Shown in pieces: positions 36,336-61,041 of a stretch of 64,000 bases of DNA (its first letter is position 1; the number at the start of each line of letters is the position of its first letter). Source of the DNA: an uncultured delta proteobacterium (GTDB taxonomy: Bacteria; Desulfobacterota; Binatia; UBA9968); NCBI GenBank assembly GCA_963737905.1, contig CAVTUQ010000007.1:352001-416000 (forward strand). The letters run 5' to 3'. The notes below the pieces were generated by a model. That model searched no databases and was not told the DNA's origin. It saw nothing but the letters and a program-made list of their open reading frames with translations. Both the position numbers and the translations under genes were made by a program.

Positions 36336-36339
36336 GATC

Positions 36340-36374
36340 AAAAAAAAGACCCCCTCGGGAATCCGAGAGAGTCT
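36340..36374 (-). terminator. attenuator terminator of the pyr leader, overlapping the pyrR RBS
   Basis: Minus strand hairpin AGACTCTCTCGG-ATTC-CCGAGGGGGTCT followed by a T run. Confidence 0.85.
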
Positions 36375-44950: not shown

Positions 44951-45938
44951 TGGCGGTCTCCGGCGGTAGGATCTTCGAATCGACACGGTAACCAAATCGC
45001 TCGGGCCAGCGCTCACGCGCCCAGCCGAGAATTCCCAAAGGAAAAAAGACGACTGTCAAAGCGATCAGTAGCCCCAGAGCCACGCGTTGCCAGCCGAGAA
45101 AGTAGGTCCAGAAGACTTCCTGGGTCACATGAAAGATGACTGCGCCAATGACCGGCCCCCACAGCGTACCCTTGCCGCCCAATATCGCCATGAGCACCAT
45201 CCATACGCCGTAGGTGGAACCGGCAAAAGCGACATCCCGCGGATCGATAAAGCCGACTATATTGCCCACGACTCCGCCGGTGAGCCCGAGAAAAAACGCC
45301 GCGATGCACCATGCGGTGGTTTTGTGGCGTGTCGTGCGGATTCCTAAAGCTTCGGCCTTGTCCTCATCGTCGCGAATCGCGTTGATCGTCAAGCCGAACT
45401 GTCCGGAATACAACCAGCGCAAGACTGGGAATGTGAGCGCCGCAATGGCAAACATGAGATAATAGAAAAAAGTCTCGCGTGCTCCGGCCGGGCCGGGATA
45501 GAGCGGAGTCACCATACCCGAGCCCGCGCCGATGTAGTCCCAGCCGCTGGCAAATTCCCCCGCGGCAACCCCAAGGCCCAGCGTCCCGATGGCAAAATAG
45601 TGCCCACGCAGACCAAGGATGGCTGAACCAAGCAAGGCCGCAAGAGCGACCGCGAGCACGGCCCCCATACCCATGCCCGTGAATAACGCCGCGTAGTAGC
45701 CAAGTCCGGAATCGCGCTGAACGACCGCGCAGGCGTACATGCCGACACCGAAAAACACAATATTGCCGAACGAGTTATAACCCATCTGCCCGCCGAGAAG
45801 ATCCCACGTGAGCGCAAATACGATCATTAACCAGAGAAATGCCAACTGAGTTCGGTAATCCGGTGCCAGGACAGGCGCCGCAATGGCAACGGCAATAAGA
45901 CCAGCGTAAAGTAGAAGACCTGCGACTGTCCGGCTCAT
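44934..45938 (-). CDS. branched-chain amino acid-type ABC permease (LivM-like)
   Basis: LRGHYFAI, AIRDDE, LGGKGTLWGP. Confidence 0.9.
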   Translation of the reverse strand: MSRTVAGLLLYAGLIAVAIAAPVLAPDYRTQLAFLWLMIVFALTWDLLGGQMGYNSFGNIVFFGVGMYACAVVQRDSGLGYYAALFTGMGMGAVLAVALAALLGSAILGLRGHYFAIGTLGLGVAAGEFASGWDYIGAGSGMVTPLYPGPAGARETFFYYLMFAIAALTFPVLRWLYSGQFGLTINAIRDDEDKAEALGIRTTRHKTTAWCIAAFFLGLTGGVVGNIVGFIDPRDVAFAGSTYGVWMVLMAILGGKGTLWGPVIGAVIFHVTQEVFWTYFLGWQRVALGLLIALTVVFFPLGILGWARERWPERFGYRVDSKILPPETASETHS

Positions 45939-46834
45939 TGCAGGTATCTCCGCTCTCGACCAAGCCAGAACCGGCGCCACACCAAGATCATTACCAGCAG
46001 ACTAAAAACGAAAGCAGCCTGATATTCCGTCCCCAGAATAAAACCTGCAAAGTTCTCGGCAATGCTGAGAGCGATTCCCGCGCCAAGTACGGCGCCCACG
46101 TTACCGAGACCGGCGACGATCACGATCATAAACGATCGTAGCGTATAGGGTAATCCGAGATACGGATGAATGATCCAGGTCATCGCGACGAGCGCCCCTA
46201 CGGCGCCACAAATGGCTGCATTGAGCGCGAAAGTCCAGGCATAAACCTGGTCTGTGGCGACACCCAGAATTCGCGCGGCGCGCGCGTTCTGGGCCGTCGC
46301 GCGGATTGCCTGACCCATACGCGAGCGCTTGAGAAACAGCATTGTCACCCCGCCCACAATCAGCGCAGCAGCAAATGCGACGAGTTTAATTTCCGGAACC
46401 GTCACGAGACCACCGAATAGAAGGATCGTTTCAAGACCGGAATCCGCTGTGCGAACGTCGGCGCCGAACAACTGGTTCGCGACCTGCTGCAGTACGATAC
46501 TCAGGCCAAACGTTGCCAGGATCGAGATGAACAGGTCTTTGTCGACGACCCGGTAAATGACGGTCTTATAAAGAGCCCAGCCGAAAATAAATAACAAGAC
46601 CGCTGCGAGGGGGATGCCAAACAGTGGGTGGATTCCAGCAATATACAAATAATATGCAGTGTAACCGCCGAGCATAACGAACTCCCCCTGGGCGATGTTG
46701 ATAATATTCATTACGCCCCACACGAGAGCCATGCCGAAGGCGGCGAGCGCGAAAATCGCTCCAATCAGAAGTCCGTCCAGCAACAGCTGAACGGACAAAA
46801 TCGGCGCATTGAAAAGTAGTTCGATATTTTCCAT
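45935..46834 (-). CDS. branched-chain amino acid-type ABC permease (LivH-like)
   Basis: GVMNIINIAQGEF, GQAIRATAQN. Confidence 0.9.
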   Translation of the reverse strand: MENIELLFNAPILSVQLLLDGLLIGAIFALAAFGMALVWGVMNIINIAQGEFVMLGGYTAYYLYIAGIHPLFGIPLAAVLLFIFGWALYKTVIYRVVDKDLFISILATFGLSIVLQQVANQLFGADVRTADSGLETILLFGGLVTVPEIKLVAFAAALIVGGVTMLFLKRSRMGQAIRATAQNARAARILGVATDQVYAWTFALNAAICGAVGALVAMTWIIHPYLGLPYTLRSFMIVIVAGLGNVGAVLGAGIALSIAENFAGFILGTEYQAAFVFSLLVMILVWRRFWLGRERRYLQ

Positions 46835-46843
46835 TGCGGCAGA

Positions 46844-46880
46844 TTTGTCCCGATCCGGCGTTCGGTTGGATCGGGACAAA
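46844..46880 (-). terminator. intra-operon hairpin between the SBP and permease genes (mRNA stabiliser or partial terminator)
   Basis: TTTGTCCCGATCC ... GGATCGGGACAAA, 13-bp stem. Confidence 0.65.
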
Positions 46881-46900
46881 CGCGTCAACGGAGTCAGGTT

Positions 46901-48130
46901 TTACTTGAGCGGGAATTTGACTTCCGCTTCGGCCCATTTGGTGGGCGCCACTACCCGGTACTTACCATCCTGGATTTGGTACAGGATCATCGGTTTGGCG
47001 ATGTTCTTGCCGGTCTGGTCAAACTTGATGTGACCGTAGAAAGTCTCCATCTCGGTAGCCGCGATCGCGTCACGTAGCTTTTCCGGCTCGAAACACTGAC
47101 AGCGTTGGAACGCATCGGCGAACACCTGTACCGTAGCCGACGACTCGGCGGCCTGGTAGGGTGGCTCATATTGATACGTCTTCGCAAAAAGCTTGGCATA
47201 GTCTTCGGCTCGCCCAAATAACTTGTCCGAGTATTTCAGGCTACTGTCCCATTGCGAGGCGCATAGGAATCCTTGCGCCGCCGCGGGCATCGTCTCGGCG
47301 ACTTTAGCCGAGTCGCAGTGCGTGGTTGCCATCATCGGCGTCCGCACTTTCATCTGATTCGTTTGCCGCACGACCAACGTCGCGCCCTTTTCATGCCCCG
47401 ACACCACCAGAAGATCGGGCTTGAGCGCCTTGACCTTGGTTAAAGTCGCAGCCATGTCATTGATTTCGGGCGGCAACTTGTCGTCGATAACGATTTTCAT
47501 GCCGTACTTCTTGGCGTCTTCGACGACACCGGATCGGACGTCCCGGCTGAACGGATCGTTCTCGAATGCCATGGCGATCGTGCCCTGGTCCGGCTTCTTA
47601 CCAATGGCCGGAGCCTTCTCGGCCATGAGAGTAATCGCTGATTTGAGATAGTAATCGGTGCTGGATAGCGTAGCGAACAGATATTTGTAACCTTTATCGA
47701 ACAGCGAAAGCGCGGCTCCGTTACCTTCAATCATAGGGATCTTGTACTTCTCAGTCACCGGCGCCATTGCTGTGGTCAGTCCGGAACTATAGGGACCCAG
47801 CATGTATTTTACGTTGTCCTGGTTGATAAGACGCTCTGCAAGCTGGGCCGCGCGGGCCGGCGTAGACTCATCGTCATAGTAAACGATTTTTAGCTTATAA
47901 GTCTTGCCTGCGATCTTGAGTCCACCGCTCTCATTGATTCGTTGCACTGCCAAATCGTACCCGTGCTGTGTATTCTTGCCGTTGGTGGAATATTTGCCGG
48001 TCAGTGAAACCGCCGCGCCCAGAATTATCGTATCCCCCTCTACCTTGGCGGTCGCGTTTTCACTGCCCGCGATGAGCAGTGCGCCGGCAACGAGCGAAGC
48101 CAAACCAGTCTTAAAAATGAATTTCAGCAT
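46901..48130 (-). CDS. branched-chain amino acid-type ABC substrate-binding protein (LivK-like)
   Basis: Signal peptide, SLTG, YYDDES, LGPYSS; heads the complete Liv-type operon. Confidence 0.9.
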   Translation of the reverse strand: MLKFIFKTGLASLVAGALLIAGSENATAKVEGDTIILGAAVSLTGKYSTNGKNTQHGYDLAVQRINESGGLKIAGKTYKLKIVYYDDESTPARAAQLAERLINQDNVKYMLGPYSSGLTTAMAPVTEKYKIPMIEGNGAALSLFDKGYKYLFATLSSTDYYLKSAITLMAEKAPAIGKKPDQGTIAMAFENDPFSRDVRSGVVEDAKKYGMKIVIDDKLPPEINDMAATLTKVKALKPDLLVVSGHEKGATLVVRQTNQMKVRTPMMATTHCDSAKVAETMPAAAQGFLCASQWDSSLKYSDKLFGRAEDYAKLFAKTYQYEPPYQAAESSATVQVFADAFQRCQCFEPEKLRDAIAATEMETFYGHIKFDQTGKNIAKPMILYQIQDGKYRVVAPTKWAEAEVKFPLK

Positions 48131-48844: not shown

Positions 48845-49729
48845 TCAACGCGGCCTGATTGGGAACAGCCAGAATGCAAGAAAGTTGGTTGCCGCATGCA
48901 ATACAATGCACCAGATGATTCCCAAGCGTATTCTCGTAAAGGCTAAAATGAAGCCCCCGATAATCTGCGGCAACACCAACAGTGGAGCCAACACCAGAGT
49001 CTCAGCAGAAAACGATGAGAATCGGTAGTTGGTGAGGTGGAACAGCCCGAAAGCGAAGCAGCTAATGTAAACGACGGCTCTAAAGTGACCGAACCATATC
49101 CTAGTGGTAAAGCGTTTGACCGGCTCGGTCCGCAGCACAACATGTACAACGGATGCTACCAATAGCGCAAAAACTGCGCTCCATAACCACCGTGTTGCCA
49201 AGCCAAAAATTCCGAGCTTTAGAAGCAGCCGTCGGACCGTAAATAACACAACGATCAGGGCCGAGATCGTAAGATTGATTTCGCTGTATCTTAGAGGGAG
49301 CCGAAAAGTGAGTTCTTCGGCAACGGGAGCGAGTAGAACCGAGATCCAGAGACGCGATCCCGCTAGACCCACTATAGGAGACACTCCGAGATGCTTTAAT
49401 ATGGGAATGCCGACGAAGAATGCGCTGATGAGCGTAAGGAACACGTCGTACCCAAGCAAAGAGCAGCCCAGGATCAACGGGTTAGCCCCTTTCGTGACCG
49501 GTTTAGAGGGGTTGAAGCAGAATCTAGTAAGAGCTGAGATGGTGGAAATTCCGGACCTGCCACAAAGCAAGCCAAGGGACAAAAGAAGCAGCAATAACGC
49601 AAAGGCCAAGTTGCCAGCGCGCACGTATAACCCCGCACCCCATAGCCCCGCGGCCCAGCCAACAACCCAAAGCACATTCCATAAAACGCGCCATGGATAC
49701 CAGGTTGATTGTACGCGTGGCATAGCCAC
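48845..49729 (-). CDS. CPBP family intramembrane metalloprotease (CAAX/Abi-like)
   Basis: EELTFR, FGLFH and LHAATN motifs; multiple TM segments. Confidence 0.85.
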   Translation of the reverse strand: MAMPRVQSTWYPWRVLWNVLWVVGWAAGLWGAGLYVRAGNLAFALLLLLLSLGLLCGRSGISTISALTRFCFNPSKPVTKGANPLILGCSLLGYDVFLTLISAFFVGIPILKHLGVSPIVGLAGSRLWISVLLAPVAEELTFRLPLRYSEINLTISALIVVLFTVRRLLLKLGIFGLATRWLWSAVFALLVASVVHVVLRTEPVKRFTTRIWFGHFRAVVYISCFAFGLFHLTNYRFSSFSAETLVLAPLLVLPQIIGGFILAFTRIRLGIIWCIVLHAATNFLAFWLFPIRPR

Positions 49730-49837
49730 CCATCAAGATCAGGTAAATGATTGGATGACGATCTTACTTTAGCCGCTTCCGGTCATAATTCGTTAGAAAG
49801 AAAATTCAACCGGCATCGCCGGCTTGTTTTTCTGCCA

Positions 49838-50833
49838 TCACTTAATCACTTTATCCGCCCGCGCCAACACATTCGGCGGGATTGTAAGGCCTATCTGTTT
49901 AGCGGTTTTCAGATTGATGACGAACTCGAACTTTGTCGGTTGCTCGACTGGCAGGTCGCTGGGCTTGGCTCCCTTCAAGATTCTGTCCACGAAATAGGCG
50001 ACGCGCCGGTAACTGTCCGCGAGGTCCGCCCCGTAGTACATGAGGCCGCCGGCATCTACAGCTTCTTCGACGCCATACATCGCCGGCAGTCGGTTCTTTA
50101 ACGCAAAGCCCGCAATCCGTTGTACGTTAGCACGTATTTGCCGGCCTCCGCCGGGCACAAAGATTCCATCCGGGCGCTGCTTATTTAGGGCAGCGAATAC
50201 CTTCTCTAAACCGTCCGCATCGCGTACCTCCCAAGACTTAAGAGTCAATCCCAGCGCACGCGCCGTGACAGGGAGACCCTTTCTTACCTCGTTCGCAGTG
50301 CCCTGAGCGGCAGGATCGTAGAGAACCGCGACACTGGAAACCTTGGGAACGGCTTCTTTGAATAGCTCAAGCCGCTTACCACCTAGTTCACGGCCAAGGT
50401 TTGTGATGCCGGTAACGTTGCCACCGGGACGGGCAAGGCTTTCAACGAAGCCTGCTTTCACAGGATCAGTCCCAACGCCCACCATGACGATCGGAATCGT
50501 CTTGGTTGCATTCTTGGCTGCCCGGATCTCCGGGTCCCCTCCCGATACCACGATCAAATCAACCTTCAGACGCACCAGTTCAACGGCAAGTTCAGGAAGC
50601 CGATCGAGCTTACCTTGCGAATAGCGATAATCGAAGGCGATGTTTTGTCCTTCTGTGTAGCCAAGCTCACGTAGTGCCATCCGAATCGGCTTAGAACGCC
50701 GGAAATCAGTAGTGGGGTCGGTCGACGATAGATACCCTACTCGGGAAACTTTCTTCGGCTGCTGCGCGGCGGTGAGATTGCAAAGCGCTAAGAGCAGAGC
50801 GCCAAGCGCGAAAAGCAGGACATTTTTTCTCAT
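49838..50833 (-). CDS. ABC_sub_bind paralog I (array)
   Basis: Signal peptide AAQQP; [30 protein letters not shown]. Confidence 0.92.
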   Translation of the reverse strand: MRKNVLLFALGALLLALCNLTAAQQPKKVSRVGYLSSTDPTTDFRRSKPIRMALRELGYTEGQNIAFDYRYSQGKLDRLPELAVELVRLKVDLIVVSGGDPEIRAAKNATKTIPIVMVGVGTDPVKAGFVESLARPGGNVTGITNLGRELGGKRLELFKEAVPKVSSVAVLYDPAAQGTANEVRKGLPVTARALGLTLKSWEVRDADGLEKVFAALNKQRPDGIFVPGGGRQIRANVQRIAGFALKNRLPAMYGVEEAVDAGGLMYYGADLADSYRRVAYFVDRILKGAKPSDLPVEQPTKFEFVINLKTAKQIGLTIPPNVLARADKVIK

Positions 50834-50882
50834 CTGTTCTCCGGTTCTTTCCGCTTGGCTCTTTACCCCATGCGCTTTGCCG

Positions 50883-50946
50883 TCATCGGATTACCTTATC
50901 GGCTCGATACGGCACGGACTGCGAAATCGTCACGCCGACCTGAGCT
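50883..50946 (-). pseudogene. orphan 3' tail of an ABC_sub_bind gene
   Basis: Reads QVGVTISQSVPYRADKVIR*, resembling the tail of 163-1149. Confidence 0.75.
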
Positions 50947-51010
50947 TGACTCTAACGTTGATACCGACTCCAACTTGTCTGTAATCTAATGCCATTGTAA
51001 ACTCCAAGCG

Positions 51011-51295
51011 GTGTTAATCGATGAATTGCTGTGGCCTCAGGATCGAATTAATCATATCGGTAGACACCGCGTGCGACCGGAAGAGGTTGAAGAAGTATGT
51101 TTCGGCAACCCCTGGGTACGACGCACCAAAGCAACTGGCAAAAACCCAGTTTACTATGTCCTCGGCCAAACCCGTTCTGGCCGGTACTTGTTTTGTGTTG
51201 TGGTCCAGTTTCCCAATCGCAAAGGTTTCCCGGTCACCGCTCGAGCTATGACGGAAAAAGAAAAGCGACAATTCAGGCGATGGAAAAGACAATGA
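51011..51295 (+). CDS. BrnT-family toxin
   Basis: W..H..RH.V..EEVEEV, GQT..GRYL..V, VTARAM..KE. Confidence 0.85.
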   Translation: MLIDELLWPQDRINHIGRHRVRPEEVEEVCFGNPWVRRTKATGKNPVYYVLGQTRSGRYLFCVVVQFPNRKGFPVTARAMTEKEKRQFRRWKRQ

Positions 51296-51570
51296 AAGCA
51301 CGTAAGATCCCTTCCACTGATTCAATCGAAGAACTTGCTCGGTTCTGGGACCGCCATGACCTGACAGATTTCGAGGACCAACTTGAGGAAGTCAGTGCTC
51401 CGGTATTTACTCGTAAGTCCACCACAGCGGTGACGGTTCGATTGCGTCCTAACGAAGCCAAAGAAATCAAGCGAGTTGCCAAAACCAAACGTGTGCCAGA
51501 AGCGACGTTAATACGCCGCTGGGTCATCGAGAAACTGCGCGCCTCCGGCACGTCGTCTAGAAAGCGCTGA
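51292..51570 (+). CDS. CopG/BrnA-type antitoxin
   Basis: EELARFWDRHDLTDF plus C-terminal RHH (VTVRL..LIRRW); ATGA-coupled to the toxin. Confidence 0.85.
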   Translation: MKARKIPSTDSIEELARFWDRHDLTDFEDQLEEVSAPVFTRKSTTAVTVRLRPNEAKEIKRVAKTKRVPEATLIRRWVIEKLRASGTSSRKR

Positions 51571-51613
51571 TCTTCACGGGTGGATACAACCCTAGCCTTT
51601 CGCCCCTCTTGGG

Positions 51614-51660
51614 TCACCGAATCACCCTGTCCGCTCGCGCCAATACGTTGGGTGGGATCG
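51614..51660 (-). pseudogene. orphan 3' tail ('empty slot' 1)
   Basis: AAAATAGGTAGGC joined directly to GATCCCACCC... = [14 protein letters not shown]. Confidence 0.8.
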
Positions 51661-51728
51661 CCTACCTATTTTAGATTTTCGATTTTGGATACATCAACTC
51701 CGCTCAGTACAGGTTTTAGATTGTTCGA

Positions 51729-52708
51729 TCATCGGATAACTCGATCTGCTCTGGCCAATACGTTCGGGGGTATGGTCAATCCGATCTGTTTCGCTGCTTT
51801 CAGATTGATGATGAACTCGAACTTCTTCGGCTGCTCCACCGGGAGATCGGCGGGCTTGGCACCTTTAAGAATCTTATCAACGTAAGTGGCGGCGCGTCGA
51901 AACAAGTCTGTAATGCTCACACTGTAGGTCATGAGACCACCGTCTTCGACAAATTCTCCATGGAGTGGTATATCGCCGGGATTCGGTTTTTGACCGCGAG
52001 TTCTACAACCTGTTTTCGTCCAAAAGTGATGACGGGGTTCTGCAACGTAAGAACTGCGGCAGCACGACCCTTACTCGCGCTTGGAACGCAATCTCCAAAT
52101 CTTTGGGAACTCTTACTTCTAAGTATTGAACTTGCACCCCCAGCACTCCTGCAGCGAGTTCTATGTCTTTTAACGCTTGCGTATTGCCTGGCTCGGCCGA
52201 AGTCCCGAAGACGGCTAGGCGGGAGAGTCTAGGAATAGTCTCCTTTAGAATCTCTAGTTGTTTGCCGCTTATCACTGGGGAGAGATTTGACATCCGGTAA
52301 TGTTTCCGCCAGGTCGCGCAAGGCTCGCAACAAAACCCGACCCTACGGGGTCACCTTCATTACCCATGACAATGGGAATCGTAGCTGTCGCTTCCTTGGC
52401 GGAACGGGTCGCTGCCGGACCAGCCGTGACGATGACATCAACCTTGGAACGCGCTAGTTCCACCGCGAGGCTAGTTACTTCATTCGATTTGCCCTCTCCA
52501 AACCGATACTCAATGATAATATTTTTTCCCTCCAAGTATCCAAGTTCACGCAGCCCTTCGCGGAAGGCCTCTACCCGGGCCGCCACAATAGAAGCGGAGG
52601 CCGCGCCTAGCAAAGCAATCCGAGGAATTTTCGCTGGCTGCTGCGCCCAAACTGGATCGCAAAGCGCAGGAGCAAGGGTAAGCGCAAACCAATAACTGTC
52701 TTTCTCAT
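51729..52708 (-). pseudogene. ABC_sub_bind paralog H (several frameshifts)
   Basis: ORF pieces 52272-52760, 52003-52293 and 51729-51932 concatenate to one paralog; start MRKTVIG. Confidence 0.85.
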
Positions 52709-52761
52709 TAGGCTTTTCCCGGTGTTTTTCTTGCTCTCTGGCCCTTGCTCCTTGCTCCATG

Positions 52762-53790
52762 CTATTTAATTACTTTATCCGCTCGCGCCAGCACATTCGG
52801 CGGAATCGTGAGGCCGATCTGCTTGGCGGCTTTCAGATTGATGATGAATTCAAAGTTTATCGGTTGCTCCACGGGAAGATCGGCTGGCTTAGTTCCCTTT
52901 AGAATCTTGTCTACGAACACCGCTGCTCGTCGCGCCAAGTCGTCACGCCGCGCGTTGTAGCTCATAAGCCCACCGTCCTCGACAAATTCTCGCCTATAGT
53001 AAATCGCAGGAAGCTGACTCTTGGCTGCAAATTCCACAATCCGTTTCCTCTGTGCAGTAGCGAACGGGCCATTTGTTACAATGAGAGCTTCGGTACGCGC
53101 CTTGGAGATGGCTTCCAATGCGCGACTAAGATCGTCGGGGTTTTTTACCACCTCAAATTGAAGCTTGAGTCCCAATGATCGGGCTGCTTCTTCGGTATCT
53201 TTCAGTGTCACCGTAGAGCCGAGGGTACCCGGGCCCCGAAGGTCAATTACGTGTGAGAGCCGTGGAAGGGTTTCCTTGAGCAACTCAAGCAGTTTCCCTC
53301 TTAGTTCAGCGGAAAGACTCGCCAGCCCCGTGATATTACCGCCAGGCCGGGCAAGGCTCGCGACCAAACCTGCTCCTACGGGATCAGTTTCATTTGTCAT
53401 AACAATGGGAATCGTGCTCGTTGCTCCTTTGGCTGCGCGTGTATCTGCCGCGCCGCCCGTAACGATGACATCAACCTTTAGCTGGACTAGCTCAGCCGCA
53501 TTTCGTCGGACCTGAGCGGGCCTTCCCTGCGCAAATCGCCATTCAATGACGATGTTCTGCCCTTCGACGTATCCCAGTTCGCGCAGTCCCTGGCGAAATG
53601 CCTCTTCGTTGTTTTCTCCGGAACTACTCGCTGATTGATAGCCGATCCGTGGGATTTTAGTTGGCTGCTGCGCCTGAGCGGGGAAGCAGGGAGCAAGGAG
53701 CATGGAGCAAAGAGCCAGAAACACAGCGGCGCAAAGGCCTCGCGCTAATTGCCACACGCTGAACGACCTTTCAACGAATTTTTTCCTCAT
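52762..53790 (-). CDS. ABC_sub_bind paralog G (array)
   Basis: Intact; family motifs; signal ending LALCSMLLAPCFPAQAQQP. Confidence 0.92.
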   Translation of the reverse strand: MRKKFVERSFSVWQLARGLCAAVFLALCSMLLAPCFPAQAQQPTKIPRIGYQSASSSGENNEEAFRQGLRELGYVEGQNIVIEWRFAQGRPAQVRRNAAELVQLKVDVIVTGGAADTRAAKGATSTIPIVMTNETDPVGAGLVASLARPGGNITGLASLSAELRGKLLELLKETLPRLSHVIDLRGPGTLGSTVTLKDTEEAARSLGLKLQFEVVKNPDDLSRALEAISKARTEALIVTNGPFATAQRKRIVEFAAKSQLPAIYYRREFVEDGGLMSYNARRDDLARRAAVFVDKILKGTKPADLPVEQPINFEFIINLKAAKQIGLTIPPNVLARADKVIK

Positions 53791-53841
53791 TAGTTCTCCA
53801 GTGTGTTTTCTGGCTCCCTGCCCACAGCTCCGTGCTCCCTG

Positions 53842-54875
53842 CTATTTGATGACCTTATCCGCCCTCGCCAGCACGTTGGGCGGAAAGTGAGCCCGATCTG
53901 CTTGGCGGCTTTGAGATTAATGATGAGATCGAACTTGATCGGCTGCTCCACGGGAAGGTCCGCTGGCTTTGCGCCCTTCAAAATCTTGTCCACATAAGTG
54001 GCCGCGCGCCGGTGCAGGTCGGCCAAGTTCGTCCCGTAGGACATGAGGCCACCGGACTCCACAAACAAGCTAAAGGGGTACATCCCCGGCAGCCGGTTCT
54101 TTGCCGACAGGTCCACGATCTGCGTTCGACGTTCGATGGTGACAGCATGCGGCAGTACGATAAGCCCCTGGGGATGGCCCTTGGTGAGATTCGCGAAGGC
54201 GTGCTCGATCTCGGCTGGTCCCACCACCTCTTGGCGCTGGGGAGTCACCTTCAACGCTTGGGCCGTCGCTTGGATCTGTGCCCAATAGGTGCGGTGGGAC
54301 GAGGTCTGGGAAACTGCGAGGACGGCGACGCGGGAGATCTTGGGAACCGCCTCCCTGAGCAGCTCCACCCATTTCCCTGCGAACTCTTCGGCTTGATTTG
54401 AGAAGCCGGTAATGTTCCCGGCCGGCCGCGCGAGGCTGGCGACGAAGCCGCTCTCAACAGGATCGCCCATACCCGCCACGACGATGGGTACGGTTCGGCT
54501 CGCCTGCCGAAGAGCTGCCACCGCTGCGTTGCTCTGTGTAACGATCACGTCTACCCTGAGATTGATCAGCTCGTCGGCAAGGGCCGGGAAGCGATCGGGC
54601 GTTCCCTCCGCCCAGCGGTAGTCAATGAAGATGTTCCGGCCCTCGACGTAGCCAAGTTCGCGCAGCCCTTGGCGGAAAGCTTCAAGGAGGGGGGCGCCCG
54701 CGGAAGGGGTGAAGGCACCCAGGTAACCTATCCGCGGGATCTTCGCCGGCTGCTGCGCGTGGGTGGGGAGGCAAGGAGCGAGGAGCATGGAGCAAAGAGC
54801 AAGAAACACTGCGGCGTAACGGCTTCGCGCCAAGAGCGAAGCGTTAAACGAATTGTCCAAGACCTGTCTTCTCAT
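53842..54875 (-). CDS. ABC_sub_bind paralog F (frameshift near 53886 at the T-I-P-P codons)
   Basis: Start MRRQVLD; the [13 protein letters not shown] tail is present in the shifted frame. Confidence 0.85.
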
Positions 54876-54929
54876 TGAGTTCTCCCATGGGTTTTTCTGG
54901 CTCCCTGCTCTTAGCTCCATGCTTCCGTG

Positions 54930-54976
54930 CTATCTTATGACCTTGTCCGCCCTTGCCAGCGCGTTAGGCGGGATCG
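54930..54976 (-). pseudogene. orphan 3' tail ('empty slot' 2)
   Basis: AAAATAGGTAGGC joined to GATCCCGCCT... = IPPNALARADKVIR*. Confidence 0.8.
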
Positions 54977-55044
54977 CCTACCTATTTTAGATTTTCGATT
55001 TTGGATACATCGACTCCGCTCAGTACAGGTTTTAGATTGTTCTA

Positions 55045-56030
55045 TCATCGGATAACTCGATCTGCTCTGGCCAATACGTTCGGGGGTATTGCCAATCCGA
55101 TCTGCTTGGCTGCTTTCAGATTGATGATGAACTCGAACTTCGTCGGTTGCTCCACAGGCAGGTCAGCCGGCTTGGCGCCTTTCAAAATCTTGTCAACATA
55201 AGTAGCAGCGCGACGAAACAAGTCGGCACCGCTCACGCCATATATCATCAGCCCGCCGGCTTCCACAAATTCTTCCCTGTAGTATATCGCCGGTAGCCGG
55301 TTTTTTACCGCGAGGTCAATTATCTGTGCTCGCTGAGTATTAGCGACGGGGTTCTGTAGTACGAGGAAAGCTTCCGCGCGCCTTTTGATGGCGGCTTGGA
55401 ATGCATTCTCGACATCCTGTGGACTTAGAACGTCGAAGTATTGAAGCTTAACCTTGAGAGCCCCAGCAGCAATTTCCACCTCTTTTAGCACTTGTGCGTT
55501 GCCCGAGTAGGTTGAAGTCCCGAAGACGGCCACGCGAGAGAGCTTGGGAATCATCTCCTTCAGAAGCTCCAACTGTTTTCCGCTTATTTCTGGCGCAAGC
55601 GTGGACAATCCCGTAATGTTCCCGCCAGGCCGCGCAAGACTGGCCACGATCCCAGAACCGACCGGATCGCTATCGTTAGTCATGACAATGGGAATCGTAA
55701 CGGTTGCTTCCTTGGCGGGACGAGTCGCCGCGGGACCAGCCGCGACAATGACGTCGACTTTGAGCCGAACCAGTTCGGCCGCAAGGTCAGGCAGCCGATC
55801 GAGTTTTCCATTCGCCCACCGCCAATCGATAAGAATGGTTTTACCCTCGACATGCCCGAGCTCGCGCAATCCCTGCCGGAATGCTTCAGTGCGGGTCGCG
55901 TTAGCGGAAGGGACGGTAGTAGCTAGGTATCCGATCGCGGGATTGTCGTCCGTTGCTGCGCCGTGGCCGCAGCCACACAGGTCGCCAAAGTCACAAAGAT
56001 TGGAAAGAGTCGCACGACGATGTGCTTCAT
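55045..56030 (-). CDS. ABC_sub_bind paralog E (frameshift near 55938, just after the signal peptide)
   Basis: GGAGG RBS; MKHIVVRLFPIFVTLATCVAAATAQQRTTIP, then IGYLATT in the next frame. Confidence 0.85.
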
Positions 56031-56057
56031 GCCTCCACCTATTTTCGATTTTAGATT

Positions 56058-56474
56058 TTAGATTGCCGATTGAACGGAGAACTTCCATTTACGCCTTTGA
56101 AGTGCTCGAATCGACGCTACCGTCATCGCTATGATCTCATTGGTTTCCTGCAACAATTCCGACAGCCGAGCCTCTGCTATGAGCTCGGATTCAATAAGTA
56201 GTTCCATCCAGTACCCTGATTCGTCCGCCTCTTCTTCAACTATCCGGAGTTTGGCGATCACATCGGCTGTGGACTTGCCGCGACACGCTGCTCGATAGTT
56301 AACGCCAATCGAAGTGCCAGATCGGATCAACTGTCTACCTAGGACATCCGCGCTCCGGTTCCTCGGCAAGGCGTTCGACGACTTTGATGACGCGTAATGT
56401 AGCTGCTTTGTGCGCTTCTTGAATAAGTTTTCATCTATCTTTTTTCTCCCGCAATCGAAAATCGAAAATGTCAT
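56058..56474 (-). CDS. four-helix bundle protein (23S rRNA IVS/TIGR02436-like), possibly degenerate
   Basis: GRQLIRSGTSIGVNYRAACR, KLRIVEEEADES..W; compensating indels convert the expected KQLALRVIKVVEA into KQLHYASSKSSNA. Confidence 0.85.
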   Translation of the reverse strand: MTFSIFDCGRKKIDENLFKKRTKQLHYASSKSSNALPRNRSADVLGRQLIRSGTSIGVNYRAACRGKSTADVIAKLRIVEEEADESGYWMELLIESELIAEARLSELLQETNEIIAMTVASIRALQRRKWKFSVQSAI

Positions 56475-57433
56475 CTTATGACCCGATCCGCCCGCGCTAG
56501 AACGTTCGGCGGAATTGTTAATCCGATCTGCTTAGCCGCCTTCAGGTTGATTACGAACTCGAATTTTGTCGGTTGCTCGACCGGTAGATCTTGCGGCTTG
56601 GCACCCTTGAGAATCTTGTCCACGTAGGTGGCGGCGCGGCGGTACAGATCGCTAAGCAGAGGACCATAAGCCGCGATGCCGCCTTCCTCGGCAAATTGTC
56701 GAGTCGGATACATGCCAGGAAGGCGATGCTTTAGCGCCAGCTCGGCAATCTGTTTTGAGTGAAGGGTAACAAGCGGACTCAATACAACCAAAAGGGCATC
56801 AACGTGAGCCTTCGACATCTCTACAAATGCCTTGTCGATGTCATCAGCCTCGCGCAACTCAATGGGATGTAGCGGTACCGATAACGCTTTTGCCGCATCC
56901 TGAGTTTCCTTGAAACCTAAGCTGACCCTACTCCACAGCGCCGCTACGCGGCGGCTTTTTGGAAACGCTTCTTTGAGCAGCTCGACCCGTTTGCCGCTGA
57001 GATCGGACGCAAGGACCGTCAGACCCGTAATATTTCCCCCGGGCTTCGCTAAACTCTCCGCCAAGCCTCGCTCTATCGGACCGCCGCTGGTCATGACGAT
57101 CGGCACGGTGCTCGTCACCTTGCGCGCCGCCTGAGCGCTGAGCGACGAGGTGGTAACGATGACATTTACTTGTTTTTGTACCAGATCGGCAGCCAGATCC
57201 GGCAAGCGATCGTAATTGCCTTCGGCAAAGCGGTATTCGAAAATTACGTTCTTTCCTTCGGTGTAGCCACGTTCGCGCATCCCTTGTTTAAACGATTCCA
57301 GGTGCGGCTGATCCTGCCCGCCAACGAAGAGAATCCCGACGTGGGGAATTTTTGGGGTCTGCTGCGCCCAAACTAGAGCGCAAAGCGCATGGAGCAAAGC
57401 GGTAAGCGCAAAGCCAATAACTGTCTTTCTCAT
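56471..57433 (-). CDS. ABC_sub_bind paralog D (array)
   Basis: Intact; DQPHLxSF motif shared with 163-1149. Confidence 0.92.
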   Translation of the reverse strand: MRKTVIGFALTALLHALCALVWAQQTPKIPHVGILFVGGQDQPHLESFKQGMRERGYTEGKNVIFEYRFAEGNYDRLPDLAADLVQKQVNVIVTTSSLSAQAARKVTSTVPIVMTSGGPIERGLAESLAKPGGNITGLTVLASDLSGKRVELLKEAFPKSRRVAALWSRVSLGFKETQDAAKALSVPLHPIELREADDIDKAFVEMSKAHVDALLVVLSPLVTLHSKQIAELALKHRLPGMYPTRQFAEEGGIAAYGPLLSDLYRRAATYVDKILKGAKPQDLPVEQPTKFEFVINLKAAKQIGLTIPPNVLARADRVIR

Positions 57434-57478
57434 AGATTTCTCCCGGTGTTTTTCTTGCTCTTTGCCCTTTGCTCCATG

Positions 57479-58513
57479 CTATTTAATTACTTTATCCGCT
57501 CTCGCCAGCACGTTGGGCGGGATCGTCAAACCGATCCGTTTCGCGGTTTTAAGATTGATGATAAACTCAAACTTCTTCGGCTGCTCTACCGGTAAATCCG
57601 CCGGCTTGGCGCCTTTCAAAATCTTGTCAACGTAAGTAGCAGCGCGACGAAACAAATCGGTATAGCTGACGCCGTAGAACACGAGGCCACCGTCTTCCAC
57701 ATACTCTGGCCTGCTGTATATTGCGGGAAGCCGGTTTTTTATCGCGCGGTCTGCCACCTGTCCTCTTTGAGCGGTGAGGAGAGGGGTCGTCACCACGAGG
57801 ACTGCATCGGCGTGCTGTTTGGTTGCGGCGTGGAAGGCAGTCTCGATATCCTTGGGTTCTCGTATTTCCAGATATTGAATCTGCACCCGTAACGCATCCG
57901 CGGCGAGGTTGATCTCTCTTAAGGCTTGCGGGTGGCCCGGTTGGCTCGCATTCCCGAGAACGGCCACGCGGGAGAGCTTAGGAACGATTTCCTTTAGAAG
58001 CTCTATTTGCTTTCCGCTTATCTCCGGAGCAAGGGTTGCCAGTCCAGTTATGTTCCCGCCAGGGCGGGCAAGGCTCTCAACAAATCCGCTGCCGACAGGA
58101 TCATCATCATAGCCCATGACGATGGGAATCGTAGCAGTCGCTTGCTTCGCAACGCGAGTGGGTGGCGGCCCCCCCGAGACGATCACGTCTACGTTAAGAC
58201 GCACTAGCTCGGCTGCAAGTGCAGACAAGCGATCCGCTTTCCCTTCTGAAGATCGCCACTCGATAACAATGTTTTTTCCCTCCACGTACCCAAGCTCACG
58301 CAGGCCCTGTCGGAACGCCTCGATACGAGCCGAGATAGTGGAAGGCGGTACAGCAAGGAGAAACCCGATGTGGGGGACCTTCGCCGGCTGCTGCGCCTGG
58401 GCGGGGAAGCAGGGAGCAAGGAGCATGGAGCAAAGAGCCAGAAACACAGCGGCGCAACGGCTTCGCGCTAAGAGGGAAGCATTAAACGAACTGTCCAAGA
58501 CCTGTTTTCTCAT
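57479..58513 (-). CDS. ABC_sub_bind paralog C (array)
   Basis: GGGAG RBS; start MRKQVLD; family motifs. Confidence 0.92.
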   Translation of the reverse strand: MRKQVLDSSFNASLLARSRCAAVFLALCSMLLAPCFPAQAQQPAKVPHIGFLLAVPPSTISARIEAFRQGLRELGYVEGKNIVIEWRSSEGKADRLSALAAELVRLNVDVIVSGGPPPTRVAKQATATIPIVMGYDDDPVGSGFVESLARPGGNITGLATLAPEISGKQIELLKEIVPKLSRVAVLGNASQPGHPQALREINLAADALRVQIQYLEIREPKDIETAFHAATKQHADAVLVVTTPLLTAQRGQVADRAIKNRLPAIYSRPEYVEDGGLVFYGVSYTDLFRRAATYVDKILKGAKPADLPVEQPKKFEFIINLKTAKRIGLTIPPNVLARADKVIK

Positions 58514-58567
58514 TGAGTTCTCCCGTGGGTTTTTCTGGCTCCCTGCTCTTAGCTTCATGCTTCCCTG

Positions 58568-59599
58568 CTATCTTATGACCTTGTCTGCCCTCGCTAGCAC
58601 GTTGGGCGGGATCGTGAAGCCGATTTGCTTAGCTGCTTTGAGGTTGACGATGAATTCGAACTTTGTGGGTTGTTCGACGGGCAGGTCGGCCGGCTTGGCG
58701 CCCTTCAGAATCTTGTCCACATAGGTGGCGGCGCGGTGGTACAGGGCAGCAAAGCTTACGCCATAGCTCATCAGCCCTCCATCGTCCACCCACTGGGACT
58801 GCGGGTAGATTGCCGGCAGCCGATTCTTTAGCGCGAGTTCCGCGATCTGTTTGCGTTTGGGATTGAAAACCGGAGTCTGCAACACGAGCATTGCGCCGGC
58901 CCGTTCTTTATTTGCGGCTTGGAATGCAGGCTCAATATCTCGCGGATCTGCTATCTCGAGGTATTGAAGCTTTACCCCAAAGGCCCCCGCGGCAAGTTCA
59001 ATTTCTCTCAAGGTTTGCGCGTTACCCGGTTCGGCTGAAGTTCCCAGAACAGCCACGCGGGAGAGCCGTGGAACGATCTCCTTGAGAAGCTCCAGTTGTT
59101 TTCCGCTCAACTCCGGTGAAAGCGCCGATAGACCCGTGATGTTTCCTCCCGGCCGCGCAAGACCGGCAATGAAACCATTGCCGACGGGGTCGGGATCAAA
59201 TGCCATGACGATGGGAATCGTAGCTGTTGCCTGTTTGGCCGCGCGGGTCATGGTCGGGCCGCTCGTAACGATGACATTTACTTTGAGGCGCACGACCTCG
59301 GCGGCTAGTTCACTCTGTCGTTCGACCTTGCCGTCTCCAGATCGCCACTCGATGACGATATTTTTCCCTTCTACGTAACCCAGTTCCCGCATCCCCTGAC
59401 GGAAGGCCTCGTTGCGAGCGACGTTTGAGGAAAGCGACGAGATGGTCAGGTATCCCACGTGCGGGATTTTTCTCTGTTGTTGGGCCGACGCGGTCGAACA
59501 AACCGCAAAGAGTGTGGCGCATATTAGAATTGCGGATTTGAGATTGCGGAATGCGGATTTTAGGTCAATGTCGAGACAGTGAAACAAAATTCGATCCAT
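58568..59599 (-). CDS. ABC_sub_bind paralog B (array)
   Basis: Intact; N-terminus contains heptamer-derived KSAFRNLKSAI. Confidence 0.92.
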   Translation of the reverse strand: MDRILFHCLDIDLKSAFRNLKSAILICATLFAVCSTASAQQQRKIPHVGYLTISSLSSNVARNEAFRQGMRELGYVEGKNIVIEWRSGDGKVERQSELAAEVVRLKVNVIVTSGPTMTRAAKQATATIPIVMAFDPDPVGNGFIAGLARPGGNITGLSALSPELSGKQLELLKEIVPRLSRVAVLGTSAEPGNAQTLREIELAAGAFGVKLQYLEIADPRDIEPAFQAANKERAGAMLVLQTPVFNPKRKQIAELALKNRLPAIYPQSQWVDDGGLMSYGVSFAALYHRAATYVDKILKGAKPADLPVEQPTKFEFIVNLKAAKQIGFTIPPNVLARADKVIR

Positions 59600-59636
59600 T
59601 GCTGTTTCCCCTCAATTCGAAATTCGCAATCCGAAA

Positions 59637-60620
59637 TTATCTAATAACCTTGTCCGCCCGCGCCAGCACATTCGGCGGAATCGTGAGCCCGATCTGCTTC
59701 GCCGTTTTGAGATTTACCACCAGCTCGAACTTTGTCGGCTGCTCCACCGGTAGGTCGGCAGGCTTACGGCCTTTCAAGATTTTATCCACAAAGCTCGCTA
59801 CTCGTTCATACATCTCCATAACGTCCGCACCGTAAAACATGAGCCCACCTACATCCACCGCATCTCTGGCGTCATACATTGACGGCAACCGGCTCTTTAT
59901 GGCAAAGGCCGTAGTTCGTTCAAAGCTACGTTGCATCAGTGGGCCGCCAAGCACAGAGATTCCATCAGGGCGCTCCTTGTTTATCGACGCGAATACTCTG
60001 TAAAAGCCATTCGCATCGCGTACATCACGACGCAATATCGTTAGATTCAGCGCGCGCGCCGATGATGAGAGCACTTCCTTGAACTCCAACATGTTGCGCT
60101 TATTGTTAGCCTCGTAAAGGATGGCGATGCGGGTAGCTTTCGGAACCGCTTCTTTGAGCAGCTCCAGCCGTTTGCCGCCGAGATAACCAGAGATATTTAT
60201 ATAACCGGTAATGTTCCCGCCGGGACGGGCAAGACTTTCGATCAGGCCGGCCTCGACGGGATCGGTCCCACCACCCACCATAACAATCGGAATCGTCTGG
60301 GTCGCATTCTTGGCTTCCAGGATCGGCCTGTAGCCTCCCGCTACGAGAATGACGTCAACCTTCAGATTCACCAGTTCGGCCGCAAGCCCAGGAAGCCGAT
60401 CAAGCTTGCCTTCTGCACTTCGGTACTCCATCGAAATATTCCGTCCTTCGACGTAACCGAGGACTTGCAATGCCCGGCGAATCTCCTGCTTGCGGTCGGA
60501 GTCAAGTGCCGCCGGCTGCGTGGTCAGATACCCGATCCGTGCAACTTTTTGCTGCGCCTCGGCGAACCTGCCTGCCGCAAGAAGGCCAAGTGTAACTAGG
60601 CAGACAACTTTCTTATTCAT
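59637..60620 (-). CDS. ABC_sub_bind paralog A (first gene of the array)
   Basis: Intact; family motifs. Confidence 0.92.
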   Translation of the reverse strand: MNKKVVCLVTLGLLAAGRFAEAQQKVARIGYLTTQPAALDSDRKQEIRRALQVLGYVEGRNISMEYRSAEGKLDRLPGLAAELVNLKVDVILVAGGYRPILEAKNATQTIPIVMVGGGTDPVEAGLIESLARPGGNITGYINISGYLGGKRLELLKEAVPKATRIAILYEANNKRNMLEFKEVLSSSARALNLTILRRDVRDANGFYRVFASINKERPDGISVLGGPLMQRSFERTTAFAIKSRLPSMYDARDAVDVGGLMFYGADVMEMYERVASFVDKILKGRKPADLPVEQPTKFELVVNLKTAKQIGLTIPPNVLARADKVIR

Positions 60621-60637
60621 GGCCTTTCCCTTTTAGC

Positions 60638-60684
60638 GCAATGGTTATGCCAAAAAACGGAGGCTATGCAAATCACAACTTATG
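60638..60684 (-). promoter_or_regulatory. sigma54 (-24/-12) promoter plus conserved 15-mer at the head of the array
   Basis: Minus strand TTGGCATAACCATTGC (GG-N10-GC); AAATCACAACTTATG identical to 10465-10479. Confidence 0.55.
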
Positions 60685-61041
60685 GATGAATACGGGCTAA
60701 AAAGCGTCTCAAATTTGCTACAGGAAGAGTAGCAAATTTGATTCAATTGAAAAGGAAATGTTGAAAAAGTCTTGGCATACATCAGTTCGATGAAACGAAA
60801 GCACATTGAAATCCTTGAATTCCACAAGAGGTGGCGTGCTATTTTCAGCATCTCAACTGTAATCTTCAGCCAAAGCCAGACTGGGCACGCTTTTTAGCTT
60901 TCATTGCTGCCAGTGCAACTTAACGAGGAGATATGAGAACCGACTGCGGTCGCGCAAGGTGCACCTAGCATGATGTTTCGTAAATCAGTCGACGTTTGGC
61001 GTTGTGAGAATTTCGTTCCTCTGATCAGGGCTTATTTCCTA

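Follow-up and report, generated by a model that had tools for sequence, protein, structure and literature searches.

Junctions and mature bodies of a PF04392 gene array in an uncultured Binatia bacterium have separate histories

The window studied here is a stretch of 64,000 nucleotides (nt) from an uncultured delta proteobacterium of the lineage Binatia, namely positions 352001-416000 of contig C7 in assembly G000, a metagenome-assembled genome (MAG) of 6.7 Mb in 46 contigs with 54.5% GC. From 49.8 to 60.7 kb of the window, nine tandem units of one gene family, PF04392 (ABC_sub_bind, substrate-binding proteins of ABC transporters, here predicted to be secreted), lie on the minus strand. Here, we show that in this family the junction, that is the 3' tail of one gene together with the spacer and the signal-peptide sequence of the next, and the mature body have separate histories and have been swapped repeatedly at two conserved sites, the Ala-Gln-Gln (AQQ) codons at the end of the signal peptide and the Ile-Pro-Pro (I-P-P) codons in the tail. 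An initial annotation, made from the letters of the window, had proposed a model of this kind, and that model essentially holds.

Junction copies, their ages and their trees

That junctions are reused was suggested by three junction types, each occurring twice at high identity, and global alignment bears this out. Pair a (58379-58614 and 54741-54976) is identical at 215 of 236 positions (91%) with no gaps, pair b (57359-57526 and 52638-52809) at 152 of 176 (86%) with small indels, and pair c (54970-55141 and 51654-51825) at 166 of 172 (96.5%), so that the "about 6 mismatches" counted by eye in the annotation are exactly 6. The gene bodies between the paired junctions differ strongly, as had been claimed, and are about 54-59% identical. 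A BLAST comparison of 300-nt chunks recovered pair a at slightly greater length (54736-54976 and 58374-58614), together with pair b (52624-52848 and 57345-57565) and pair c (51651-51950 and 54967-55266, 88% over 300 nt). Similarity had been said to drop right after the AQQ codons. Between genes C and F the identity in a sliding 30-nt window is 0.80-0.97 from 58615 to 58376, ends there in a step-like edge, and runs at 0.33-0.87, mostly about 0.5, across the body; the peptide continuations quoted in the annotation are present in the translations of the open reading frames (ORFs). Over 1711 pairs of loci in the genome, the 110 nt before the AQQ end have a median identity of 0.53 and a 99th percentile of 0.72, and since pairs a, b and c lie far above the latter, chance is excluded. 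The genes and junctions of the array are as follows.

59637-60620, minus strand: gene A, an intact PF04392 paralog; an ORF, in the seed alignment, covering positions 3-329 of the family hidden Markov model (HMM)
58568-59599, minus strand: gene B, intact; junction a takes in its last 46 nt (58569-58614), a tail of family D6
57479-58558, minus strand: gene C, intact; the first base after AQQ is 58387
56471-57433, minus strand: gene D, an intact PF04392 paralog
56058-56474, between D and E: gene for a 23S-rRNA intervening-sequence protein (IVP), Pfam PF05635
55045-56088, minus strand: gene E, PF04392 body intact, signal-peptide region out of frame
53790-54920, minus strand: gene F, a mosaic with C-like flanks, a body like that of locus C29_91029 and a frameshifted tail
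52762-53790, minus strand: gene G, intact; both flanks C-like, body unrelated to C; the first base after AQQ is 53664
about 51730-52760, minus strand: gene H, a PF04392 pseudogene in four frame pieces; HMM chain 8-329
49838-50833, minus strand: gene I, an intact PF04392 paralog beyond a toxin-antitoxin pair
58374-58614, minus strand: junction a, the B tail from I-P-P, a 55-nt purine-rich spacer and the C signal peptide through AQQ-PAK
57345-57565, minus strand: junction b, the C tail, spacer and D signal peptide up to AQQ; 84-86% identical to junction b'
55965-56640 (approximate), minus strand: a fourth junction type, the 3' end of D, the whole IVP gene and the start of E
54967-55266 (core 54970-55141), minus strand: junction c, the 3' end of E, a 70-nt spacer with an AAAATC-type repeat and the start of an orphan tail
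54931-54976, minus strand: orphan tail, the reference copy of tail family D6, starting at the I codon and coding only for I-P-P-N-A-L-A-R-A-D-K-V-I-R-stop, with no body before it
54736-54930, minus strand: junction a', a spacer and the F signal peptide through AQQ-PAK; with the orphan tail it spans 54736-54976
53642-53900, minus strand: junction a'', the F tail, spacer and G signal peptide; 81% identical to junction a
52624-52848, minus strand: junction b', the G tail, spacer and H signal peptide
51615-51825, minus strand: junction c', with its own orphan tail at 51615-51660, whose I codon starts at 51658

In junction a, the putative ribosome-binding site (RBS) GGGAGAA precedes the likely start ATG at 58513, both being read from the sequence. 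Measured from the AQQ end, the segment of high identity runs from -348 to +2 between C and G and from -274 to +14 between D and H. The fourth junction type, whose window coordinates were derived from relative positions, recurs with its IVP gene before the unrelated body C27_8177 on contig C27: identity between the two copies is 0.67-0.93 from -690 to -15 and about 0.55 in the body, and one high-scoring segment pair (HSP) covers 229 nt at 86%. A third copy of junction c lies at C29:92926-93042 (86% identical). The I codon is the exact start of four orphan tails, at 51658 and 54976 of the window, at C29:93072 and at C42:955. An AAAATC-type repeat, the same in all four cases, lies directly before each tail, and three of the tails, members of the c-junction family, may come from one event. 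In the array, tail family D6 occurs in 11 copies and the C-terminal block D1/D2 in 9, and AQQ is found in nearly all loci.

Four-helix proteins of the 23S-rRNA-intervening-sequence type are encoded by ORFs dispersed among unrelated genes. Besides the copy at 56058-56474 there is one at C27:7834-8063, with 86% DNA identity to it, and two ORFs on contig C28 (165851-166216 and 194668-195090) were judged to be of this type by N-terminal sequence only.

The synonymous divergence of junctions and bodies, which the annotation had proposed to compare, is unequal. In pairs of loci that share a junction, the four-fold degenerate sites of the bodies are saturated at 0.22-0.47 identity (C/F 34 of 86, C/G 20 of 90, D/H 20 of 67, C1_66016/C19_49127 29 of 86), whereas the junctions are 0.74-0.90 identical, or 0.84-0.94 in the four pairs named when the non-coding spacer is included, with 0.88-0.94 for C/F; the spacer itself is 0.84-0.97 identical in such pairs. 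C29_85085/C29_88255 alone departs from this, its codon phase being unreliable because of frameshifts. In pairs that share a body the contrast is reversed: four-fold sites are 0.72-0.94 identical (131 of 160 for C29_84082/C29_88255, 133 of 158 for F/C29_91029) and the junctions stand at the random level of 0.35-0.65 (0.35-0.51 for F/C29_91029). As the contrast holds both ways, it refutes a joint divergence of junction and body, and likewise a fast divergence of bodies by selection.

The trees tell the same story of separation. Junction identity and body identity are nearly uncorrelated over the 1711 pairs (Spearman 0.076), and the nearest neighbour by junction agrees with that by body in 3 of 59 loci. 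The body tree of 61 loci places C, H, E and B in one well-supported clade of 13 rows and pairs F with C29_91029 (support 100), while the junction tree groups (D,H), (C29_85085,C29_88255) and (C1_66016,C19_49127) at 99. With body data, the approximately unbiased (AU) test rejects four of five clades defined by junctions, namely (C,F) (p 2e-43), (C,F,G) (6e-63), (C1_66016,C19_49127) (1e-5) and (C29_85085,C29_88255) (0.039). A body clade whose 13 loci lie on seven contigs (80-87% identical) is nearly identical starting some 12 nt ahead of the AQQ end, yet carries at least six unrelated signal peptides.

The pattern is also present in other public MAG fragments. Among 118 full-length loci, junctions are shared at 0.80 or more in 13 of 6903 pairs, several of them with dissimilar bodies (junction/body identity 0.88/0.60 for the L069 pair, 0.91/0.72 for L021/L079, 0.84/0.66 for L033/L040 and 0.82/0.65 for L061/L067). 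In all four profiled pairs identity drops just after AQQ, most sharply in L069, L021/L079 and L033/L040 and more shallowly in L061/L067.

Breakpoints and inverted repeats

To locate breakpoints, we used a three-way analysis of informative sites in four triplets, with 300 permutations each. Positions count from the first base after AQQ, and informative sites are given as those at which the child is like the junction parent versus those at which it is like the body parent. Elsewhere, Q offsets are relative to AQQ and T offsets to the I-P-P codons.

F (flank parent C, body parent C29_91029): sites 99:12 in the 5' part, 15:318 in the middle and 23:7 in the 3' part; 5' break +8/+9 (window 54741/54740), 3' break +860/+868 (window 53889/53881), I-P-P at about +861
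G (flank parent C, unrelated control body): sites 55:8, 135:112 and 62:16; 5' break -12..+3, 3' break +869..+872, I-P-P at +858
C29_88255: sites 94:6, 16:225 and 12:16; 5' break -14/-12, 3' break +880/+897, I-P-P at +865
C19_49127: sites 64:8, 24:261 and 28:19; 5' break -11..+5, 3' break +773/+779, I-P-P at +873

The statistic of each triplet was reached by none of its 300 permutations. Breakpoints had been predicted at the AQQ and I-P-P codons: all four 5' breaks lie within -14..+9 of the AQQ end, and three of the four 3' breaks lie within T-1..T+32, the one that departs from the prediction being that of C19_49127. In an all-against-all comparison, HSPs of at least 700 nt and at least 86% identity start at Q-49..Q-9 in 7 of 8 cases and end at T+7..T+40 in 5 of 8. 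At least five distinct loci have tracts that end at T+5..T+8, just after I-P-P, and all 10 junction-type tracts end at Q-31..Q+29. We conclude that the AQQ and I-P-P zones are strongly preferred, not exclusive.

Gene F carries a mark at this very place. A deletion of one base at its I codon sits exactly on the 3' breakpoint and shifts the frame, so that the ORF runs past the original stop near 53843; the tail aligns with C29_91029 up to "...CTCAC" and is of the C/G type from the I-P-P codons on. The deletion looks like a recombination scar.

Which part moved is shown directly for F. Its body is 92.3% identical over 951 nt to C29:91055-92001 (92-94% to C29_91029), a divergence about the same as that between the F and C junctions (91% identity), and both of its flanks align with those of C at an offset of 3.64 kb. 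Likewise, the two junctions around G and the two around C fall on a single diagonal, with an offset of about 4.72 kb (BLAST diagonal 4722). Such high-low-high identity on one diagonal is most simply explained by tandem duplication of a unit followed by replacement of the segment between the blocks. Body replacement is shown directly for F, is the more parsimonious reading for G and may hold elsewhere. Pairs that share a junction lie in the same array in 7 of 13 cases, against 147 of all 1711 pairs (8.6%), and pairs that share a body are dispersed, with 7 of 66 in the same array (Fisher p 0.0012); local sharing of junctions and dispersed sharing of bodies fit local duplication with ectopic conversion of bodies.

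A feature that is new relative to the initial annotation is an inverted repeat across the junction. For five genes (C, F, G, D and I), the purine-rich spacer that follows the upstream stop and the sequence coding for the hydrophobic core of the signal peptide form an inverted repeat. The arms are 18-41 nt long, 71-94% complementary and 19-106 nt apart, and the RBS and start codon lie between them in C, F, G and D.

58401-58568: inverted repeat of C, spacer arm 58529-58568 and signal-peptide coding arm 58401-58447; fold z -2.81
53685-53843: inverted repeat of G, 37-nt arms, 81% complementary and 85 nt apart; fold z -4.08, reached by 0 of 200 shuffles
57382-57484: inverted repeat of D, 30-nt arms, 80% complementary; fold z -1.36, not significant alone
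54784-54923: inverted repeat of F, 18-nt arms, 94% complementary; fold z -3.30
50780-50880: inverted repeat of I

RNA folds of five leaders gave z scores of -2.8, -3.3, -4.1, -1.4 and -1.9, and the same stem is present in the RNA fold of H. An inverted repeat was found in every junction-type tract examined, and at least three unrelated arm sequences are in use. Counting a window when its score was reached by at most 1 of 200 shuffles, we found inverted repeats in 22 of 82 junction windows against 1 of 82 body controls in this genome (Wilcoxon p 9e-8), and in 14 of 114 against 1 of 114 in other MAGs (p 8e-6). Folds of the spacers alone gave no sign of structure (z -0.15, +1.31, +1.17 and -0.68 for c, c', a and b). 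RNAalifold on 11 junctions, in which the a- and b-type leaders differ in length, gave a weak consensus of -2.28 kcal/mol with a different short stem, and no Rfam match was found in 49000-61000 at E up to 0.1. Neither promoter-like sites (2, with 4.1 expected) nor terminator-like sites (14, with 11.1 expected) show enrichment. The predicted hairpin may act in RNA, on translation or stability, or in DNA, through breaks that seed conversion.

The three arm classes occur at 26, 2 and 15 places genome-wide, and two of them, checked across the genome, are also found in unrelated intergenic regions, with 13 matches of arm motifs in an exopolysaccharide cluster on contig C28. This region (C28:165000-210000, L089-L091), judged by the N-termini of its ORFs only, is an exopolysaccharide or O-antigen-like gene cluster whose intergenic regions are packed with two of the repeat motifs of the junctions. 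The short palindromic AAAATC/GATTTT-type repeat lies at 54977-55044 and 51661-51729 of the window and at C29:93072, C42:955 and L091:3150-3500; it translates as "...NLKSKIENR...", occurs at 35 places genome-wide, many of them intergenic, and is the commonest junction palindrome in other Binatia-like MAGs.

Explanations and genomic setting

We argue that the array probably arose by tandem duplication followed by ectopic gene conversion bounded by two conserved blocks, as the mosaic structure, the unequal ages and the positions of the breakpoints suggest. Two blocks are conserved throughout the family: the end of the signal peptide with AQQ and the first mature residues, and the last 50-80 codons up to the stop. 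The array would have grown by local tandem duplication of whole units, since the junction pairs on both sides of a body share one alignment diagonal. Ectopic homologous recombination, of which gene conversion or gap repair is the simplest form, would then have overwritten the segment between the blocks with a paralog from elsewhere, and the tract ends would have fallen in the conserved blocks because donor and recipient resemble each other nowhere else. The outcome would be a junction module (the tail after I-P-P, the spacer with its RBS and the signal peptide) and a body module (the mature domain) with separate genealogies. The enzymology would be that of RecA-type general recombination, or else of template switching, without any recombinase dedicated to the task. 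Our verdict is that the mechanism is probably general homology-bounded recombination and not a dedicated system. The claim that bodies are exchanged between two fixed zones stands, directly for F and by parsimony for G, with "fixed" weakened to "preferred". That each incoming body gains an RBS, a signal peptide and a C-terminus holds as a consequence, and a purpose is not demonstrated.

Several observations weigh against this account. In the body tree D sits elsewhere on a long, poorly placed branch, and the AU test with body data does not reject the clade (D,H) (p 0.30), so that the incongruence expected between junction and body trees is not borne out there. With junction data, in an alignment of only 117 columns, rejection is marginal for (C29_84082,C29_88255) (0.034) and (C19_49127,C2_248165) (0.049) and absent for (F,C29_91029) (0.36). 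No donor was found for the bodies of G or C, the nearest being 73% identical, so that replacement there is by parsimony only, and no strain was found to polarise the events, the best relatives being 80% identical or less. Because the junction-type pairs were picked for their identity in -110..0, their 3' ends are biased towards AQQ. An unbiased count of sharp HSP ends, 158 in all, put only 26 of them at -60..+30 from AQQ and 47 at T-10..T+60, with further clusters at +30..+89 (17) and T-180..T-90 (28), at the edges of conserved coding blocks; the clustering is thus partly a matter of conservation and detectability, not of recombination preference. Some tracts end inside bodies (Q+436, T-141, T-144, T-100, +773/+779), and some at the stop codon instead of I-P-P. 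The genome, finally, is a MAG, 87.5% complete with 6.7% contamination.

This last point, together with the 19 of 71 full-length loci that are in several frame pieces, perhaps partly from indel errors, would suit an artefact of assembly or binning, in which paralogs were mis-joined at shared words or contigs of different organisms were put together. We hold this to be extremely unlikely. The shared segments are 86-96% and not 100% identical, with differences spread along them, and a mis-join swaps partners without making diverged duplicates. The array is embedded, with housekeeping genes around it, in a contig of 488 kb, independent Logan contigs from public runs bridge both the AQQ boundary of C (X1 record 8, 373 nt, 8 differences) and the B tail and C start (X2 record 13, 247 nt, 1 difference), and the same pattern recurs in MAGs from other studies. 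The chance that there was no recombination at all, the units having been duplicated together with bodies then diverging under diversifying selection and junctions held by purifying selection, is vanishingly small. Cleavage motifs and C-terminal tails are indeed under evident protein-level constraint in all paralogs, but this reading is refuted by the saturated four-fold sites of bodies whose non-coding spacers are nearly identical; moreover, bodies with four-fold identity of 0.82-0.84 have random-level junctions, and the several distinct junction types leave no single element to be maintained.

More weight should be given to the converse possibility that the junctions moved and not the bodies, by local concerted evolution in which breaks or switches at the palindromic junction were repaired from a neighbouring paralog while bodies kept their identity through heteroduplex rejection or selection against the products. 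The enrichment of junction-sharing pairs within arrays, the inverted repeat in every tract examined and the unrelated signal peptides on closely similar bodies of one clade would all be expected, and this process and body replacement, which are not mutually exclusive, predict nearly the same present-day pattern. For F, homogenisation of junctions needs two in-register events, where one body replacement suffices given the donor-like partner, and the same argument applies to G and C; we regard it as rather unlikely as the explanation. Quite unlikely, too, is an evolved exchange system, in which the hairpin would attract breaks or template switches and the AQQ and I-P-P blocks would serve as nucleotide-level adapters that put about 100 ligand-binding bodies into any context of expression and export. 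If it were true, soil Binatia would possess a combinatorial, fast-evolving repertoire for nutrient capture, a free-living counterpart of antigenic-variation cassettes. A selfish or dedicated system, such as a mobile element like the REP doublets forming hairpins (REPINs) or miniature inverted-repeat transposable elements (MITEs), moved by a REP-associated tyrosine transposase (RAYT), or programmed cassettes moved by a site-specific recombinase, as in integrons or antigenic-variation loci, is very improbable. The dimensions of the repeats are REPIN-like (18-37-nt arms, 43-106 nt apart), arm motifs lie in unrelated intergenic regions as on C28, and the genome has five matches to PF01797 (Y1_Tnp). 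None of the three arm classes, however, has a match in the loci around these five, which led us to reject REPIN/RAYT mobilisation, and their copy numbers are low. No recombinase or mobile-element gene was found among the 52 window ORFs scanned with Pfam, and Rfam gave no match around the array. Junction identity is also not confined to the palindrome but reaches into the tail and through AQQ-PAK, and the 52 intact loci, each with its own RBS and start, leave no single expression site. A Chi-like hotspot at GCGCAGCAG was rejected as well: the sequence is not over-represented outside the family, two 8-mers scoring z 2.25 and -0.12 outside family loci (ranks 1405 and 35486 of 65536).

The array offers a clear case, open to quantification, of a unit of inheritance that is not the gene. 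A module for export and translation start and a module for ligand binding recombine repeatedly, at the signal-peptidase site and a C-terminal motif, and the family that does so numbers about 108 members in this uncultured lineage from soil. Whole-gene trees, orthology calls and scans of the ratio of nonsynonymous to synonymous substitution (dN/dS) will go wrong in such families, which at the same time offer a natural data set on how freely signal peptides exchange among related mature domains. The recombination scar of F, and the position of the start codon inside an inverted repeat, suggest repair that is provoked by palindromes and bounded by homology, an idea that could be tested in the laboratory.

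Alternative combinations of junction and body may be glimpsed in public runs. A 417-nt X1 contig of depth 4.5, from a related population, joins 58607 to 51654 and so links a C-like body with junction a directly to a c-type spacer ("c-a-C"), an arrangement not present in the window; with a short side of 42 nt, it is only a hint that such combinations exist in nature. The joints among the listed Logan contigs (depth 2-6) have sides of 20-42 nt, mostly from related paralogs or organisms, and none of these contigs crosses the breakpoints of F.

The four genes scanned match PF04392 above its gathering score, with 182 bits for C, 160 for B, 170 for E and 158 for D against a cutoff of 25.9 (E-values 1.8e-53, 1.2e-46, 6.4e-50 and 5.4e-46), covering model positions 15-19 to 292-293 of 293. 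The nearest solved structures, 3LKV (E 1e-35), 3LFT (4e-31) and 6HNI (4e-24), align over nearly the full mature domain; these are of COG2984 type, products of single genes of ordinary transporters, and their likeness to the window proteins is one of sequence family only. A further family member lies at 163-1185 of the window. Damage is seen in three of the nine units: H is broken into four pieces, F has its frameshifted tail, and in E the AQQ codons are read in another frame, as a comparison of frames at this site indicates. The body of gene I groups with paralogs from six other contigs.

The family HMM chained 108 PF04392 loci in the genome, of which 52 are intact, 19 full-length but broken and 37 partial; the broken or partial half would be true pseudogenes or partly assembly indels. 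Arrays are found on contigs C2, C7, C19, C26, C27, C29, C31, C33 and C37. In 50 of the 52 aligned intact loci, a hydrophobic N-terminus, the putative signal peptide, ends in A-x-A followed by Q-Q. Related genomes also carry the family in several copies, with matches in 24 of 31 genomes, including G000 and the unpublished G006 and G012, and most of the named records with the closest relatives of protein C are MAGs from soil labelled "Candidatus Binatia" or "Deltaproteobacteria". The spread of the signal-peptide module to other protein families was considered and rejected, as its 10 matches outside the family are truncated PF04392 5' fragments or short intergenic repeats.

Around the array are ordinary chromosomal genes, namely carAB, pyrB, recG and a Liv-type ABC transporter. 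The array itself contains no permease or ATPase gene, so that its PF04392 paralogs are "orphan" binding proteins. The Liv-type transporter, just downstream at 43347-48130 (minus strand) with a Peripla_BP_6 binding protein, two permeases and two ATPases, is a candidate for their membrane partner. Convergent to the array, between the orphan tail of H and gene I, lies a BrnT/BrnA-like pair (51011-51570, plus strand), whose BrnT-like toxin scores below the Pfam cutoff and whose antitoxin is of CopG type. A 643-aa ORF at 33835-35766 (minus strand) combines aspartate/ornithine carbamoyltransferase and phosphoribosyltransferase (PRTase) domains, next to a second PRTase gene at 35778-36341, and could be a pyrB-pyrR-like fusion or a read-through.

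Comparison with known systems

The phenomenon was not found described for PF04392 or for Binatia in the literature searched. Among systems with mobile modules, the integron has a recombinase gene, and attC-type sites where its cassettes meet; no recombinase gene is present among the window ORFs scanned, and the boundaries here lie inside coding sequence, at AQQ and I-P-P. REPINs and repetitive extragenic palindromes are short, dispersed, intergenic inverted repeats that can fold as hairpins in operon transcripts, and in the REPIN/RAYT system such repeats are highly abundant and flank a gene for a RAYT (Y1 transposase). The repeats described here differ in their low copy number (2-35 places), in their lack of association with a Y1 transposase (no match at the five PF01797 loci) and in having one arm inside signal-peptide coding sequence.

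In Borrelia burgdorferi, the lipoprotein genes with an upstream homology box and OspE-F-like leader peptides, of the Erp-Elp group, have near-identical upstream regions and leaders joined to unrelated mature parts, which is attributed to recombination. These genes are borne on plasmids or prophages of a pathogen, and to our knowledge no second fixed crossover zone at their 3' side has been described.

In relapsing-fever Borrelia and in Anaplasma, cassettes are moved by gene conversion between upstream and downstream homology sequences (PMC4534519). The likeness lies in the replacement of a variable central segment between a conserved 5' leader and a 3' homology, and in the many donor copies, pseudogenes included. 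Those pathogens combine a single expression site and silent donors with high-frequency switching and immune evasion, whereas here 52 of 108 loci are intact with N-terminal leaders, RBS and start codons of their own, in a free-living soil bacterium.

The closest precedent is the lpl cluster of Staphylococcus aureus. [quoted passage not shown] The likeness extends to tandem paralogs, secreted proteins, incongruent trees on either side of a conserved intragenic region and homologous recombination, for which the explanation given was unequal crossing-over with apparent conversion. The present array has tandem paralogs with a conserved intragenic block and incongruent phylogenies as well, and pairs a, b and c and the IVP-containing junction are all of this type. 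The evidence here comes from paralogs in one MAG and from other MAGs, and about 108 loci are spread over many arrays. In lpl, one central conserved region divides the ORF into two variable halves, whereas each unit of the present array has two blocks, AQQ and the C-terminal one with I-P-P. Exchange between them, unlike that in lpl, separates the whole mature domain from the module for export and translation start.

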